Below, in pieces: positions 32,718-37,649 of a stretch of DNA of 37,649 nucleotides; position 1 is the stretch's first letter; each line of letters opens with the position of its first letter. The notes under the pieces are model-generated. The model saw nothing but the letters and a program-made list of their open reading frames with translations, was not told the origin of the DNA and ran no database searches. A program made the translations under genes and the position numbers. This DNA comes from a virus (Duplodnaviria > Heunggongvirae > Uroviricota > Caudoviricetes), in IMG/VR virus record IMGVR_UViG_2579778631_000021; one strand, 5' to 3'.

Positions 32718-35111
32718 ATGGCTAATTACCGTGATTTGTTAGAGCAGGCTGGCGCACGTTACGGTGTGCCAGAAGGGTTGATGACTGCACTGGGTGCCAA
32801 GGAGTCTTCTTACAACCCTGCCGCAGTAAGCTCCGCCGGGGCTGTAGGATTGACTCAGGTCATGCCTGGGACATGGCGTGATATGGGTTATACCGATGAG
32901 CAAATGCAAAACCCCGAATATCAGGCTGACGCTGGCGCGCGCTATCTGGCAAAGATGTACCAGCAGTTTGGTAACTGGCGTGACGCTCTTCAGGCTTATC
33001 ACGACGGTCCCGGCAACGTTATGAAGGCAAAGCGTGGTGAATATACTCCAGGACCTGAAGGCCGCGGTTACGTTGATGATCGCTTTGCTCAATGGGCGGG
33101 TGACCCGGTGACAGACTCAACAGTCGAACAGCGCGCCACCTCTGCAAAGGTACATCCTCAGCAAGACCCTAACAACCCGTTTGCACAACTGGAAGCACAG
33201 TCATCCGAACAAGTATCGGCATCAGGCGTGCAGTCAGACCCAAATAATCCATTTGCTCAGATTGAGCAGCAGGCAGACAGTCAGCAGCCACCTCAACCCG
33301 TAAGTTCTGTCACACCGAAACCTGTTCAGCAGCAAGGCGGAATAATGTCTGACCTTGGTAATGGACTTGCTGAAACCGGGCGCGGCTTACTACAGGCAGG
33401 AATCAACGTAGCGAACATACCTGCTGAACTCACTGATGCTGTAACAAGCGCGGCGGCTTGGGCTGGCGGTAAACTCGGTATTGGCGATGGTACATATCAA
33501 CCAGCACCACGAGTAACAACGCAGGGATTAGAGCAGGACTTTGGCCTTCAGCAAGGCGCGCTGACTCCACAAACGACAGAGGGAAGGGTATTTGCTGAAG
33601 CATTGCCTTACCTCACTCCTGCTGGCGTTGAGAGAACGGCAACACAGGCACCAACACTTGCTGGTCGAATTGCTCATGGGGCAACACGACTTCTCGCAGA
33701 AAACGCAGTTGGATCACTTGCTGCAAATAGTGCGAAAGATGATGCGGAAGCACTCGCCACCGATTTAGGCGTTGGTGTGTTGGCTGGCGGTGCTATTAAC
33801 GCTGCCGGACGTGGATTAGGTGCTGCTTATCGTGGCGTTCGTGGTGCTATTGCGCCAGAAGCGCAGCAGGCTATCAGATTTGCAGAGCGTGAAGGAGTTC
33901 CTCTGCACACCACAGACCTGTTACAGCCTACTTCCCGCGTCGGGAAAATGGCGCAGACTACAGCAGAAAATATCCCCCTGGCTGGCACAAGCGGAATGAG
34001 AGCAACGCAACAGGAAGCGAGAAGTCAGTTGGTGCAGAGATTTGCTGATAAATTCGGCGAGTACGATCCGGCAGTTGTTATTGACAGCCTTAAAGCGAAA
34101 ACATCAGGAATTCGGCGTGCCGCCGGTAATCGACTGGAGCAGGTTCAGAATGCTATGGCGGGAATAAACATTCAGCCTGCAAGAGCAATTCAGCAGATTG
34201 ATACAGAAATATCTAACCTGCAGAAGCTTGGTAAGGTTGCTGATAACGAGACTATTTCAAAACTTCAGTCCTATCGTGATGAGCTTGTTCGCAATGCTGG
34301 TCCTGATGGCCCGGTAAATCTGGATTTGAAGCAATTAAGCGATCTGCGCAGCCAGTTCAGAATGGACGTGAAGGGGGAGCGACCAGTGTTACCAAACCGT
34401 TCCGATGCTGCCATTCAGCGCGTTTACAAGGCGATGACAGACGATATCAATGGTGCCATTGGTCAGAATCTTGGCAACGATACTCTCCGTAAATATCAGC
34501 AGGCCAATGCCGTCTACGCTGACGAAGCGGCGAAACTAAAGAATACCAGGCTGAAGAATGTTCTCATGAAAGGCGACCTGACGCCGGAAGTTGTCAACAA
34601 CATGCTATTCAGCAAGAACAAATCGGAAATTAAGACGCTGTATAACTCAGTTGGTCGTGTTGGCAGGGCGCAAATGCGCAATGGCATCATTGGAAAGGCG
34701 ATGGAGAAATCAGGTGGTTCCCCTGACCAGTTCCTTCGACAGCTTAACATCCTGCAAAACCAGACTGGCATCACATTTAAAGGTCAGGATGCTGCTTATC
34801 TGAAAGGATTGAAAAACTACCTTCAATCCACGCAGCAGGCTGCAAAAGCGGCAGTAACAACACCAACAGGGCAGCAAACCATCCCGTTCATTATCGGATA
34901 TGGGACAGCAATGAACCCTGCGACAACTGGCGCAGCAGTAAGCTACGGACTTCTGACTCGCGCCTATGAGAGCGAGCCATTCAGAAATGCAATGCTCCGA
35001 ATGGCAAACACCCCACGCGGATCAACAGCGTTTGAGAAAGCCATGCAGCAGGCACAAAAGGCCATTAACGCCCTGACTCAGGGGGCTAAGTCTGATGCGT
35101 TGTCAGAATAG
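32718..35111 (+). CDS. Ejection protein at gp16 position with N-terminal soluble lytic transglycosylase (SLT) domain
   Basis: 797 aa; N-terminal KESSYNPAAVSSAGAVGLTQVMPGTW...AYHDGPG matches SLT-domain motifs; remainder is Ala/Gly/Gln-rich. Confidence 0.7.
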   Translation: MANYRDLLEQAGARYGVPEGLMTALGAKESSYNPAAVSSAGAVGLTQVMPGTWRDMGYTDEQMQNPEYQADAGARYLAKMYQQFGNWRDALQAYHDGPGNVMKAKRGEYTPGPEGRGYVDDRFAQWAGDPVTDSTVEQRATSAKVHPQQDPNNPFAQLEAQSSEQVSASGVQSDPNNPFAQIEQQADSQQPPQPVSSVTPKPVQQQGGIMSDLGNGLAETGRGLLQAGINVANIPAELTDAVTSAAAWAGGKLGIGDGTYQPAPRVTTQGLEQDFGLQQGALTPQTTEGRVFAEALPYLTPAGVERTATQAPTLAGRIAHGATRLLAENAVGSLAANSAKDDAEALATDLGVGVLAGGAINAAGRGLGAAYRGVRGAIAPEAQQAIRFAEREGVPLHTTDLLQPTSRVGKMAQTTAENIPLAGTSGMRATQQEARSQLVQRFADKFGEYDPAVVIDSLKAKTSGIRRAAGNRLEQVQNAMAGINIQPARAIQQIDTEISNLQKLGKVADNETISKLQSYRDELVRNAGPDGPVNLDLKQLSDLRSQFRMDVKGERPVLPNRSDAAIQRVYKAMTDDINGAIGQNLGNDTLRKYQQANAVYADEAAKLKNTRLKNVLMKGDLTPEVVNNMLFSKNKSEIKTLYNSVGRVGRAQMRNGIIGKAMEKSGGSPDQFLRQLNILQNQTGITFKGQDAAYLKGLKNYLQSTQQAAKAAVTTPTGQQTIPFIIGYGTAMNPATTGAAVSYGLLTRAYESEPFRNAMLRMANTPRGSTAFEKAMQQAQKAINALTQGAKSDALSE

Positions 35112-35200
35112 CTTCGCAAACACCAGGAACGTGCAAAAACCAAATATGTAGAACGCAATATTCAGCATATCTCTTTGCATATATCCTCCGTAACTGATAG

Positions 35201-35461
35201 TTAGCTGCTGTCTTTTTTATATAGCTCTTTGAGCGTATCAAAGACAATTTTCTTAACCATATCAGATTGTTGTTCTGCCATACGCTCTGCATCGTCAATG
35301 TAAACTGATGCAGAGCTTTGTTTAGCCAATGATTCTTCAATCGCTGCAATTATCTCTGAGTTCAGCGACCTGTTATTCATCTTCGCGCGCTGTTTAATTT
35401 TCGCGTGGAGTTCATGCGGAAGTCTCAAGTGAAACTGCGCCTCGTCGTATTTGCTGTACAT
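35201..35461 (-). CDS. mnt: Mnt-like ribbon-helix-helix repressor
   Basis: 86 aa from MYSKYDEAQFHLRLPHELHAKIKQRAKMNNRSLNSEII...; resembles P22 Mnt (RHH N-terminus, C-terminal DAERMAEQQSDMVKKIVFDTLKELYKK). Confidence 0.75.
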   Translation of the reverse strand: MYSKYDEAQFHLRLPHELHAKIKQRAKMNNRSLNSEIIAAIEESLAKQSSASVYIDDAERMAEQQSDMVKKIVFDTLKELYKKDSS

Positions 35462-35582
35462 CCTTGATGCCTCACCAGTTGGGTGGAATGGCATCGTAAC
35501 CTACTGGATAAATACTCAATAGTACCATTTCGGTATGTAATCATATCATGGTTGCATCATATCATTCGTCTGGAGCAATGAA

Positions 35583-37649
35583 ATGTCAGATATCACCGCA
35601 AATGTTGTGGTAAGCATGCCTTCGCAACTCTTCACTATGGCGCGTTCTTTTAAAGCCGTAGCCAATGGCAAAATTTATATCGGTAAAATTGACACTGACC
35701 CTGTAAATTCTGAAAACCAGATTCAGGTTTATGTGGAGAACGAAGATGGCTCTCACGTTCCTGTATCGCAACCAATCATCATTAACGCTGCTGGTTACCC
35801 GGTATATAACGGACAGATTGCCAAATTCGTTACCGTGCAAGGCCATTCAATTGCTGTTTATGATGCGTATGGTGCGCAGCAGTTCTATTTTCCTAATGTG
35901 CTGAAGTATGACCCTGACCAACTAAGACAGGAGTTAGATGGTGTTGGTGGGGTTAATTTAGTAAATGGGGCATTACATGGTGCCATGGATTCAGATCCAA
36001 ATGTTGGTTTTAAAATCACCACATCCTCAGGTGAGATTTACGAATATGCTCCGGGAATTACAGGTCTTGCCGATGGGTTTTCGGTATCAGCATCACAGTT
36101 ATATTTAACAAGGAATGGCCTATCTTATAAATACTCTTCACCTCATAACACACTGGTTTGGCCATCTCAGTATATCGATACGAGTGCTGATGCGAAATAT
36201 TCAATTGAATCTATTATGGCGCACGGATTGAATGTGGACCTTAACGGAACTACAGTTAAAGCCAGCACCATTAATATTACGAAAGATTTGATTAATGGTG
36301 AAATTGTTGCTATCGGAGATGAAGGATCATTTATAACAGTAAACTCATGCATGCTTAACAATATTAAAGTTAACTGCAATATGATGGCAATTAGAAGGCC
36401 TGTTCATATCAAAACAGGGGCTGTTAATCCAGTAGTTAAGAATGTTGATGTTTTTGATAGTAATGGTTCTCAACTAACTTATGGTATTTTCATAGATGCA
36501 AATTCTGTATTGAATTTTGTCGTTGATAACATATCAATACATAATATTACCACCATTGGAAATGGTATTCAGGGTGATGTAATTGGGCCATGTCGAGGGA
36601 TTCTTGTAGGAACGGCACTTGATCCAGTACCATCAAATGATGATGAGGTATCAAGTGGAGTTATAAGTAACGTAAGGATTTACAAGCTAAACCCTTGGGA
36701 AGATGCTGATGGTGTTGTTATTCAGATTTACAACTCATCATCAAATATGCTCAGCGGGAAGAAAATAAAGGTTGATGGCGTTTATACTTACAATGCACTT
36801 AAGCGAGCAGTCAAAGTTCAGGCCAATGATGTTACAGTAACAAATGTATTTGCGGTTTGTGATGACGCCTCAGCAACTAACCCTATGTATAGTTGTGTTA
36901 GTGTTTATGGTAGTTCCTGTGTTGTTCGTGGTGTTAGTGGGCGAGGAAGGATTGGCAATGGTGTTGATTCATCTGATGGGTTCAATACTATCAGTGATGT
37001 TTATCTTAAGACGACAGCAACCTATGAGCTAAGCGCAGGTCTACAGATAACTTCCGGGCAGGTAAACGCGAATAACATTCACTCTGAAGGATCAAGATAC
37101 ATAGTCGCAATTCGGGCAGTTAATAACACAACACCGTATGTAAATATTAATGGCATATATGGGCAAGGTTATGACGGGGCGATTTTGTTAGAAATCAGAT
37201 ACGGATTTAATATTGGTAATGTTTACTTAAGTGATATTTCAGTATCAAGTTCAAATCCCACAAGGTCTTCATTCTTCTTTGATATATTATCAGGTGGAAG
37301 TATATCTCTGATCAGCGTGTCAGACGTCAAGAGAATCAGTCAGGCATTTAACGGAGCAGATATAAACATTTCTGGTGGGGTTGCAAAAGCTATTGTTAAA
37401 AATTCAGTTTTTGAGAGTGGTTCGTCAAGCGTTGGTGTATCAATGACAACTGGTACTTTAGTTGCATCAAATATATCAGCACAAAGTAAATCTTATGCTG
37501 TCAACGCTGTACAAACCACAAATTCACTTATAAATAACATTGATGGAATCGTTAGGGTTGATAGCACAACCAACAGTAATGTCGGCCTTTACAGAGGGAT
37601 TACCTCTGTTGGGACTAACACAGGACTGAAAACTGTTTTCTATCAATAA
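35583..37649 (+). CDS. Tailspike protein (P22-type head-binding domain + divergent receptor-binding beta-helix)
   Basis: First ~110 aa ([42 protein letters not shown]...VLKYDPDQ) match the conserved P22 gp9 N-terminal domain; remaining ~575 aa is a Ser/Asn/Val/Gly-rich repeat-like domain with lower GC. Confidence 0.9.

Follow-up and report, generated by a model that had tools for sequence, protein, structure and literature searches.

A conserved micro-gene behind an orphan mnt in a P22-like prophage, a candidate exclusion determinant tied to one type of gp16

Between its gp16-type ejection gene and its tailspike gene, the Lederbergvirus (P22-like) prophage studied here carries a reduced "ant moron", in which a repressor gene, mnt, is followed by a 25-codon micro-gene that is annotated in none of the phage and genome records examined. 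Comparison across genera has shown that this micro-gene, rather than mnt, is the conserved partner of the Sf6/L/BTP1-type gp16. We refer to the whole 37,649-nucleotide stretch of DNA as the window. With more confidence than doubt, we read the region as an orphan Mnt with a dyad operator, a conserved micro-gene whose product would impose a membrane block on gp16-dependent DNA injection, and a pair of direct repeats that belong to a mosaic cassette.

The region is bounded by a gene for a 797-aa gp16-type DNA-ejection protein (32718-35111, plus strand; Pfam SLT, 2.9e-25) and by the tailspike gene (Pfam Head_binding, 1.4e-65), whose Shine-Dalgarno (SD) sequence GGAG (35572-35575) and start codon at 35583 lie within 35572-35585 on the plus strand. 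The gp16-type protein combines an N-terminal SLT lytic transglycosylase domain with a C-terminus of the Sf6/L/BTP1 type, and its C-terminal 200 residues can be aligned with gp16 of Sf6, L, BTP1 and P22. From an organizational perspective, the moron would be a single short leftward unit, antisense to the late operon. As the original prediction had it, mnt diverges from the tailspike gene and stands alone: tblastn searches of the 37.6-kb window with Arc, Ant, SieA and orf59a of P22 found no homologue (best E-value 0.5). The window thus differs from a complete P22-type immI (mnt-arc-ant-sar) in lacking arc, ant and sar, as well as sieA and a strong P-ant over O-mnt. No Rfam family reached its gathering threshold in the window (relaxed matches in 34950-35700 had E-values of 1.1-4.1, all sub-threshold), no intrinsic terminator was found in 34900-35800, and folding of the micro-ORF and intergenic regions on both strands was not better than that of shuffled sequences (z -0.6 to 0).

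The mnt-like reading frame spans 97 codons at its longest (35201-35494, minus strand) and occupies the P22 mnt slot between gene 16 and the tailspike gene, with transcription opposing the late operon. Its product matches P22 Mnt (49% identity over 80 aa) in both the ribbon-helix-helix (RHH) N-domain (Pfam Arc, 1e-14; PDB 1MNT, 3.4e-19 over residues 6-79) and the C-terminal coiled-coil tetramerisation domain (Pfam Repressor_Mnt, 3.3e-14; PDB 1QEY, 1.7e-8). The start codon is likely at 35461, giving an 86-aa protein (35201-35461), which is also the PGAP call for mnt in E. coli W. The 11 additional codons of the longer frame are probably not translated and would instead form a 5' leader (35462-35494, minus strand): they show no synonymous and three non-synonymous changes, their upstream ATG falls within the predicted -10 element TACGAT, and the SD GAGG at 35470-35473 has the same spacing as in phages L and Gally.

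Mnt-only morons have been described in ST64T, ST104 and L (Villafane 2008; Zaworski 2020), and the orphan mnt is therefore not new and by itself ordinary. As in those phages and in Para1, IME10 and Sf101, mnt alone represents immI between gene 16 and the tailspike gene, from which it diverges. DNA nearly identical to that of the window is found in IME10 (96.7% identity over the whole region), in Sf101 and in many E. coli genomes, whereas the Mnt of L and ST64T belongs to another specificity class and is only 48% identical to ours. Is the gene then simply a functionless leftover of a degrading immI region? This option was raised as one possibility for the mnt of phage L (Zaworski 2020), and it is in keeping with the loss of arc, ant and P-ant and with the suboptimal 15-nt spacer of the predicted mnt promoter. 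We nevertheless consider it quite improbable, because none of the 41 close alleles is disrupted and synonymous changes exceed non-synonymous ones among them (24 versus 21), because the DNA-binding half of the protein shows almost no variation among them while the 11 upstream codons are unconstrained, because the majority of the 425 E. coli genomes matching the stretch carry the mnt region (144 of these hold at least 80% of it), and because a TACC-N5-GGTA dyad upstream of the gene is conserved. Judged by its domains and alleles, mnt is a genuine Mnt homologue maintained by selection.

Where might this Mnt bind? Alignment with the annotated P-mnt of P22 (TTGAGA-17-TATCAT) and with the corresponding sequences of L, Gally and VSe13 places a putative P-mnt at 35493-35519 on the minus strand (-35 TTGAGT, 35514-35519; 15-nt spacer; -10 TACGAT, 35493-35498). 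The predicted operator is the dyad TACCATTTCGGTA (TACC-N5-GGTA, 35523-35535), whose symmetry is limited to 4-bp arms and whose centre at 35529 lies 10 bp upstream of the P-mnt -35 element, a distance common to six Mnt types (window, P22, L, SE1, Gally and VSe13). In variants with different flanks, including some in which both flanks have changed, it is retained as GTACC[AG]TTT[CA]GGTATG. It also covaries with the recognition residues of the repressor: H/N/R goes with GGTCCAC (GGTCCAC-N-GTGGACC) in P22 and Q/N/R with AGACCAC in L and Gally, whereas the window and VSe13 combine Q/H/R with the TACC dyad (the recognition strand reads Q-F-H-L-R here and H-F-N-F-R in P22). From these correspondences, the dyad is the probable Mnt operator. 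It is unique in the window, where a search for a second copy as a remote Mnt target found none elsewhere. The sequence equivalent to P-ant has decayed (ATGGCA-15-TAAATA here versus TTGACA-17-TATATT in P22), and because it decayed along with arc and ant, Mnt probably controls its own unit only.

The original prediction had instead proposed as possible operator or promoter elements two direct repeats in the 120-bp region between mnt and the tailspike gene, and had asked whether Mnt represses the tailspike in the lysogen. The intergenic length is sound (121 bp from the start at 35461; 88 bp from the start of the long frame), and the repeats exist, as do all the other features it named, but its repeat coordinates (35541-35549 and 35558-35566) were off by 1-2 nt: exact 10-nt copies of ATCATATCAT lie at 35540-35549 and 35556-35565, separated by GGTTGC (35540-35565), with no further exact copy in the window. 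They amount to four ATCAT pentamers. Since a repeat of at least 10 nt arose in just 77 of 20,000 shuffles of the 121-bp region, the repeat is not a chance product of the window sequence, which speaks for a regulatory element, as do its location between mnt and the tailspike SD and the invariance of its second copy in the related loci examined. P-ant transcription in P22 is, moreover, able to read into gene 9. In the literature, only a possible effect of the moron on read-through of late transcription into the tailspike gene has been noted (PMC2629481).

We regard it as very improbable that the repeats are an Mnt operator or promoter element through which bound Mnt represses the tailspike gene in the lysogen. 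Where P22 has O-mnt, the window has the different dyad described above, and characterised Mnt operators are inverted, not direct, repeats (P22 annotation). No spot of the intergenic region varies more than the first copy: among about 55 related loci the repeat is perfect only in L027, most others having ATCACATCAT as the first copy. E. coli P276M carries the same mnt, promoter region and dyad and, from window position 35539 onwards, an unrelated tailspike leader without the repeats; M9, W13-16 and VSe13 likewise retain this mnt and its dyad while their repeat cassette has been exchanged, the junction again being at 35539. With the P-ant equivalent decayed and no rightward sigma-70-like promoter in a promoter scan, repression of the tailspike by Mnt in the lysogen is not supported. 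Comparison of these loci indicates that the repeats are part of an exchangeable tailspike-leader mosaic cassette (about 35540-35568). A leftward promoter with the second repeat copy as its -10 element (CTGACA-17-AATGAT, 35589-35561) was picked up by the scan and is no more than a weak idea, as such matches are no commoner than in shuffled sequences. A weak AU-rich hairpin, ATGTAATCAT / ATGGTTGCAT, is predicted in the tailspike leader (35535-35557, plus strand); its energy is not better than that of shuffles (z about -0.8). At the same place, Sf6, BTP1 and L have GC-rich hairpins.

The last gene of the leftward unit is the micro-ORF, located at 35103-35180 on the minus strand and encoding the peptide MQRDMLNIAFYIFGFCTFLVFAKLF, exactly as first described. 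It begins 20 nt past the mnt stop codon, is preceded by an SD sequence GGAGGA (35184-35189) 3 nt ahead of its ATG, and shares the final 9 nt of the gp16-type gene, so that the SD and the overlap were likewise correctly called. The original prediction had named conservation of the frame in related prophages as a check. The micro-ORF is intact in all 177 eligible loci, which span at least five genera and several upstream contexts and comprise 78 nucleotide haplotypes, all in frame, and 59 distinct peptides of only 23, 25 or 26 codons; among IMG/VR loci it is intact in 79/79 and 79/80. Its carriers include the Salmonella phages L, ST64T, ST104, VSe13 and BTP1 as well as Escherichia sp., Ca. Erwinia, Pseudescherichia and Citrobacter, and every eligible locus with a gp16 C-terminus of the Sf6/L/BTP1 type contains it. 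P22, whose gp16 is of another type, lacks the micro-ORF. The micro-ORF may lie downstream of mnt (as in the window, with nothing between them), of a lipoprotein gene or of orf62 (in phage L, where orf62 separates it from mnt), or directly beside the tailspike gene, and homology between these contexts starts at its SD and ATG; GGAGGATTT-ATG is common to unrelated upstream contexts, and GGAGG is found in 97 of the 177 loci.

This conservation is of the kind expected for a protein. The ratio pN/pS is 0.33 in the micro-ORF frame versus 0.48-1.86 in the other five frames, pairwise values range from 0.07 to 0.6 (0.9 for one pair) with pS at about 0.4-1.3 between genera, Fisher tests give p = 3e-5 and 1e-8, and diversity at the three codon positions (0.33 / 0.18 / 0.52) bears a coding signature in this frame only. 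Close E. coli relatives by themselves give only a weak signal (16 synonymous versus 30 non-synonymous site changes), so that the cross-genus loci are needed to reveal it. Taken together, the substitution patterns show that the micro-ORF evolves as a protein-coding sequence. Its product is predicted to form a single hydrophobic helix, with about 20 hydrophobic residues behind a polar M-Q-R-D head.

The gene has escaped annotation in all records examined, including those of Sf6, L, ST64T and BTP1. Searches with the peptide yielded nothing significant in Pfam (a sub-threshold, chance-level hit to Adipogenin, E = 0.13), NCBIfam (no hit at all) or PHROGs (one weak match to phrog_26923, a family of unknown function, E = 0.041); eight peptide variants have no exact match among about 15 billion proteins, and peptide strings do not occur in the paper texts searched. 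Derivation from sieA or orf59a was considered as an origin and set aside, as there is no significant similarity to either.

What might such a gene do? A homologous locus in phage BTP1 has a phenotype. STnc6030 of BTP1, detected by RNA-seq and Northern blot and published as an antisense RNA, confers total immunity to BTP1 and none to P22 when supplied on a plasmid, without reducing the yield of induced BTP1 (Owen et al. 2020, PMC7067206). Its coding capacity was dismissed solely because it contains no ORF longer than 60 aa (PMC7067206). When the published primers are mapped, the 786-nt STnc6030 insert is found to hold a whole micro-ORF with its SD (insert nt 407-478), MERDLLNFVFLIFGLVVGKLLFA, which overlaps the gp16 stop as in the window; no other ATG ORF of the insert has a strong SD. 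In both phages the locus runs antisense to the gp16 3' end and to the adjoining intergenic region, and by homology the window carries the sequence counterpart of the STnc6030 locus. The two also differ: in BTP1 no gene separates the tailspike gene from the micro-ORF and the 5' end of the RNA falls within the tailspike gene, whereas mnt and its promoter region are inserted in the window. The 5' region of the window's tailspike gene shares about 64% identity with that of BTP1, with poor conservation where the BTP1 RNA has its 5' end. The BTP1 peptide has 23 residues instead of 25 and is only about 48% identical to that of the window. Because of this divergence and of the position behind mnt rather than behind the BTP1 promoter, the function may not transfer from BTP1.

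According to the published mechanism, exclusion by STnc6030 is a matter of RNA pairing, and one might extend this to the window: the micro-ORF would be untranslated and the locus a pure cis-antisense RNA against the gene-16/tailspike late message. The ORF is indeed wholly antisense to the late transcript, the BTP1 RNA has been observed directly, and the escape SNPs lie within the complementary region (PMC7067206). We consider a pure antisense function distinctly unlikely. It predicts no constraint on a reading frame, whereas 177 loci preserve the frame, the start, the SD and the length class and show codon-periodic substitution, and contexts with unrelated upstream RNA share the SD and the ORF only. 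Single SNPs should not abolish pairing in a duplex of several hundred base pairs. The dominant native STnc6030 RNAs, moreover, are about 500 nt long (PMC7067206) and, if they start at the annotated 5' end, would terminate about 25 nt past the ORF, whereas the SNP region lies 650-687 nt from that end. Finally, the resident prophage, once induced, should itself be a target of an antisense RNA, yet its yields are normal; a block at the membrane would spare it and thereby resolve this published paradox.

A peptide acting at the membrane, our preferred reading, has a precedent in P22 SieA, which sits in the inner membrane and prevents DNA injection (Leavitt et al. 2024). Like sieA, the micro-ORF is convergent with and immediately adjoins gene 16, and SieA too is a prophage-expressed, hydrophobic membrane protein, features that the micro-protein is predicted to share. 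SieA and STnc6030 select escape mutations in the same C-terminal segment of gp16, those for the present family coming from the homologous BTP1 locus only. All four unique STnc6030-escape SNPs are non-synonymous in the gp16 homologue (PMC7067206). They can be placed to a 36-bp interval, which aligns with the P22 SieA-escape residue P546 (G532 lies 8 columns upstream) and, in the window, with the codons IIGYGTAMNPATT (34890-34928, plus strand), residues -73 to -61 from the gp16 C-terminus. We infer that this segment is the target of the micro-protein. The escape SNPs are also compatible with a loss of RNA pairing. A possible role of the segment as a diversifying hot spot was examined and rejected, as its variability is only moderate and another block varies most. 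SieA differs from the micro-protein in size (164 aa and several helices versus 25 aa and one predicted helix) and in also selecting escape mutations in gp20. The two are not detectably homologous: P22 SieA, which represents the P22 type only, has no tblastn hit in the window and reaches a blastp E-value of 0.08 with the micro-protein.

We envision a scenario whereby the leftward unit opens with a functional 86-aa Mnt repressor started at 35461, followed by the micro-gene with its own GGAGGA ribosome-binding site. The peptide would insert into the inner membrane of the lysogen and block DNA delivery by incoming phages with the same gp16 type, conceivably through interference with the glycine-rich C-terminal segment of gp16. 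It would thus be a miniature functional analogue of SieA, which holds the same genomic position in P22, and the 23-aa homologue inside STnc6030 would be responsible for the BTP1 exclusion credited to that RNA. Our confidence that the micro-protein blocks gp16-dependent DNA injection from the inner membrane of the lysogen is evenly balanced. An exclusion phenotype of Sf6 or L lysogens has not been reported in the literature examined.

Alternatively, the micro-protein may be real and have another role: it could be an addiction peptide or resemble a type I toxin, it could modulate a membrane protein of the host, or it could assist or restrain the phage's own gp16. Type I toxins and small membrane regulators resemble it in size and hydrophobicity; Ibs, ShoB, TisB and the like share with it a size of 19-30 hydrophobic residues and a gene antisense to another transcript. 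The abundant late RNA antisense to the micro-ORF could serve as an antitoxin, and the tight linkage to one gp16 type would suit a role in the phage's own gp16 function. Against this, the micro-protein matches no toxin family in the profile searches described above, no dedicated small antisense RNA has been identified, and hosts constitutively expressing the BTP1 locus from a plasmid grew normally, as lawns (PMC7067206). Exclusion with escape mutations in gp16 is, moreover, the only phenotype known for the locus. We therefore regard a different role as unlikely, and exclusion remains the function we favour.

A broader proposal, whose prospects we put slightly short of even, is that the effector of STnc6030-type exclusion is a peptide of 23-25 aa, the smallest known phage exclusion protein and a widespread, unannotated companion of the Sf6/L/BTP1-type gene 16 in Enterobacterales prophages, which would act in the inner membrane on the glycine-rich C-terminal segment of its cognate gp16. 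A corollary is that the orphan mnt of this prophage would be retained because its lysogen-active promoter drives the micro-gene.

The micro-ORF is in any case a conserved gene left out of the examined records, and it offers a simple and testable alternative to the published mechanism. If the proposal is true, it would extend the repertoire of phage-phage competition by a minimal exclusion peptide specific to a gp16 type and provide a reason for the persistence of mnt-only morons. It would also provide another case in which cut-offs on ORF length have filed a functional gene as non-coding RNA, and it would mark the gp16 segment targeted by SieA as a vulnerable step in the DNA delivery of P22-like phages.

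The final 5 kb of the window constitute the end portion of a P22-like (Lederbergvirus) late operon, comprising a gp20 homologue, a gp16-type ejection protein gene (32718-35111, plus strand) and, from 35583, a tailspike gene whose product has a P22 head-binding domain. The gp16-type protein has 797 aa, including an N-terminal SLT lytic transglycosylase domain (32718-33050), compared with ~665 aa for Sf6 gp13, and thus carries an extra muralytic module. Between these genes lie, on the minus strand, an ORF of 97 codons (35201-35494) and a hydrophobic micro-ORF of 25 codons (35103-35180). The latter is exactly as the original prediction described it: it is preceded by the Shine-Dalgarno (SD) sequence GGAGGA, begins 20 nt past the stop of the longer ORF and shares the final 9 nt of the gp16 gene.

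That the longer ORF encodes a Mnt homologue is close to certain, given its matches to Pfam Arc (1e-14) and Repressor_Mnt (3.3e-14) and those of its product to the solved structures of the Mnt N-domain (1MNT, 3.4e-19) and tetramerisation domain (1QEY, 1.7e-8). It is indeed an orphan, as had been proposed: P22 Arc, Ant, SieA and orf59a gave no tblastn match anywhere in the window. Such an arrangement is already known. Phages L, ST64T, ST104, SE1, Gally and VSe13 also have mnt as the sole immI gene, divergent from the tailspike gene, and the variable slot has been named "ant moron", with mnt-only versions among those listed (PMC2629481). Phage IME10 is 96.7% identical to the window across 34900-35800, and Sf101 has mnt and the intergenic region in common with it. 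Among 5,426 complete E. coli genomes, 425 carry some portion of 35060-35600, with coverage of 80% or more in 144. In the E. coli matches H95, H97 and H115, the match stops 3 nt sooner (query position 538), and the next gene beyond the mnt intergenic region carries the annotation HNH endonuclease motif protein in place of tailspike. Mnt homologues are called 'partition protein ATPase' in RefSeq phage records (Sf101, P22, ST64T and others) and in phrog_795, evidently through the spread of a wrong annotation for a small RHH repressor.

Might the orphan gene be a relic? The mnt of phage L, it has been suggested, "could have acquired another function or be a remnant" (PMC8022706). Patterns of selection speak against the latter: none of the 41 close alleles is disrupted, their site changes number 24 synonymous and 21 non-synonymous, and the DNA-binding half hardly varies. 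The start of the gene is annotated differently between records (window 35462-35494): Sf101 has a 97-aa form, and the PGAP calls are 86 aa for E. coli W and 88 aa for another genome. Because the 11 codons before the second ATG appear unconstrained (0 synonymous, 3 non-synonymous changes), the first ATG falls within the predicted -10 hexamer of the mnt promoter P-mnt, and PGAP chose 86 aa for E. coli W, the true start is most likely 35461, leaving an intergenic region of 121 bp to the tailspike gene.

Which site does this Mnt recognize? We aligned the region upstream of mnt from P22, with its annotated operator O-mnt and P-mnt, with those of L, SE1, Gally, VSe13 and the window. In all six, the centre of the best dyad lies precisely 10 bp upstream of the P-mnt -35 hexamer TTGxxx, and the dyad covaries with the residues of the recognition beta-strand: H-F-N-F-R goes with AGGTCCAC-C-GTGGACCT in P22, Q-F-N-L-R with AGACCAC-N-GTGGTCT in L, SE1 and Gally, and Q-F-H-L-R with TACC-N5-GGTA in VSe13 and the window (35523-35535). 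The last of these occurs only once in the window, and is retained as GTACC[AG]TTT[CA]GGTATG where promoter spacer and downstream sequence have both changed. A dyad at the O-mnt position is conserved, and TACC-N5-GGTA is probably the Mnt operator here. The orphan Mnt is thus both maintained and of a distinct specificity class.

The direct repeats facing the tailspike gene, originally considered as operator or promoter elements, exist, albeit 1-2 nt away from where they had been placed: exact copies of ATCATATCAT lie at 35540-35549 and 35556-35565, a repeat that is non-random here (p ~0.004, shuffles) and consists of four ATCAT pentamers. Their comparison with the P22 Mnt operator leads instead to the dyad at 35523-35535 as the equivalent site. 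E. coli P276M is identical to the window, including the mnt region, up to GGTATGTAA (35539), and then continues into an unrelated, hairpin-containing tailspike leader devoid of the repeats; M9, W13-16 and VSe13 show the same switch. This junction settles the status of the repeats, which form an exchangeable cassette outside the mnt module. The first copy is the most variable spot, reading ATCACATCAT in most relatives of the same lineage, and the perfect repeat was found at only one other locus. In Sf6, BTP1 and L, its site is taken by a hairpin before the tailspike SD that is GC-rich (-23 kcal/mol, z = -3.3 in Sf6); the hairpin of the window (35535-35557) is weak and AU-rich. In all contexts, a hairpin precedes the tailspike SD by 20-30 nt (~1820-1850 in the extracted Sf6 locus L007, ~1925-1960 on the opposite strand of the BTP1 locus L182, ~2395-2425 in the phage L locus L005), its position being conserved and its sequence not. 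It is probably not a simple terminator, because no U-run follows.

The predicted P-mnt homologue reads TTGAGT-15-TACGAT, the 15-nt spacer being poor. The equivalent of the ant promoter P-ant is ATGGCA-15-TAAATA, as against TTGACA-17-TATATT in P22, and a promoter scan detected no rightward promoter; the notion that Mnt controls tailspike expression thus finds no support. A leftward promoter CTGACA-17-AATGAT, with the second repeat copy as its -10, is only a weak idea, because shuffles yield such matches as often.

To avoid selection on the peptide itself, loci for studying the micro-ORF were anchored on the gp16 C-terminus. Among close relatives in IMG/VR with this gp16 type, the 25-codon ORF is present in all 79 usable loci (35 haplotypes). 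Representatives from Escherichia sp., Ca. Erwinia dacicola, Pseudescherichia and Citrobacter, with gp16 C-termini ~76-96% identical, have, in the equivalent position, ORFs of 23-25 codons for peptides of the form M[QED]RDxLN[IF]A[FL]...; in the Citrobacter-anchored set, scoring gave 79 intact loci out of 80, and the last one has the ORF too. It is likewise present in phages L, ST64T, ST104, VSe13 and BTP1. Altogether the frame, whose conservation the original prediction had proposed to check, is intact in 177/177 eligible loci across genera, with 78 nucleotide haplotypes (72, 78 or 81 nt) that encode 59 different peptides. Upstream, the context among the close relatives varies between mnt, a lipoprotein gene and nothing (Sf6), and homology between contexts starts at SD and ATG, GGAGGATTT-ATG being recurrent. 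The lipoprotein predicted directly upstream in this alternative moron (161-173 aa, MKKSLLIIPLLLAGC...) and that of a second gene nearby (139 aa) are without family name; such loci are LF82 (L011, 2643-3128 and 3263-3682), L012 (1643-2128) and Gally (L006). In Yersinia aleksiciae (locus L098), a different ORF of ~42 codons with a hydrophobic N-terminus (VLEIASFVALAAIVYLI...) stands instead of the micro-ORF, in convergent orientation to gene 16, and may encode a small membrane protein analogous to the micro-protein.

With all pairs pooled, the micro-ORF frame gives a pN/pS of 0.33, versus 0.48-1.86 for the five other frames. Pairwise values are 0.07-0.6, with one pair at 0.9, synonymous sites being largely saturated between genera; Fisher tests on two independent pairs gave p = 3e-5 and 1e-8, and diversity at the three codon positions is 0.33, 0.18 and 0.52. 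The signal is weak among close E. coli relatives alone. By these comparative measures, the micro-ORF is conserved and evolves as protein-coding sequence, and it is very likely translated and functional. It is annotated in none of the phage or RefSeq records inspected. Searches of Pfam, NCBIfam and PHROGs with its product gave no significant match (only a weak one to phrog_26923, E = 0.041), and the product was found neither in a 15-billion-protein collection nor in paper texts searched for peptide strings. Rfam gave no RNA family, and folding of the region revealed nothing unusual.

What might such a peptide do? We envision a scenario whereby mnt and the micro-ORF are expressed in the lysogen as a single unit, because only 20 nt and no terminator separate them, and whereby the product, with a GRAVY of 1.9 from residue 5 to the end, would be a single-pass inner-membrane protein that excludes phages with cognate gp16 via the gp16 C-terminal segment. 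We give this exclusion function an even chance. In P22 this position is taken by sieA, which converges on gene 16 and lies 22 bp from the gene 16 stop. The gp16 of P22 is of another type (22-26% identity), and P22 lacks the micro-ORF. Changes at two gp16 residues, P546 and G532, allow P22 to escape SieA, an inner-membrane exclusion protein (PMC10883804). STnc6030 of prophage BTP1, expressed from a plasmid and published as a superinfection-exclusion antisense RNA, confers total immunity to BTP1 and none to P22 (Owen et al., 2020, PMC7067206). Escape phages carry SNPs within a 36-bp region, all four unique ones non-synonymous in the gp16 homologue (PMC7067206). This interval corresponds to gp16 residues -73 to -61 (ILGIGTVTNPALV); in the C-terminal alignment it spans the column of P546, with G532 8 columns upstream.

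STnc6030 was deemed non-coding solely on the absence of an ORF >60 aa (PMC7067206), and a 2025 review still gives it as an antisense RNA. When mapped on BTP1, the cloning primers enclose the entire 23-codon homologue MERDLLNFVFLIFGLVVGKLLFA (insert nt 407-478) with SD and TATAAT; no other ATG ORF of the insert has a strong SD. The native transcripts are predominantly ~500 nt long (PMC7067206) and, assuming that they begin at the annotated 5' end, would stop ~25 nt beyond the ORF, short of the SNP region. STnc6030 expression also leaves the titre of spontaneously induced BTP1 unreduced, which its authors flag as unexplained (PMC7067206). We infer that exclusion by the peptide would account for the BTP1 findings better than RNA pairing. 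Beside the 25-aa class of E. coli and Sf6, there is a 23-aa class of micro-proteins (L, BTP1, Citrobacter; for example L182 2001-2072), which has a GxxxG motif (G-[ILV]-[VC]-V-G), and the gp16 segment with the escape SNPs is glycine-rich (LGIGTVTNPALVGVGGGYGL); speculatively, the two might engage in helix-helix packing in the membrane. The valuable part of the finding is the micro-ORF, a widespread unannotated micro-gene, and its reading as a peptide would offer a concrete, cheaply testable alternative mechanism for a published exclusion system.
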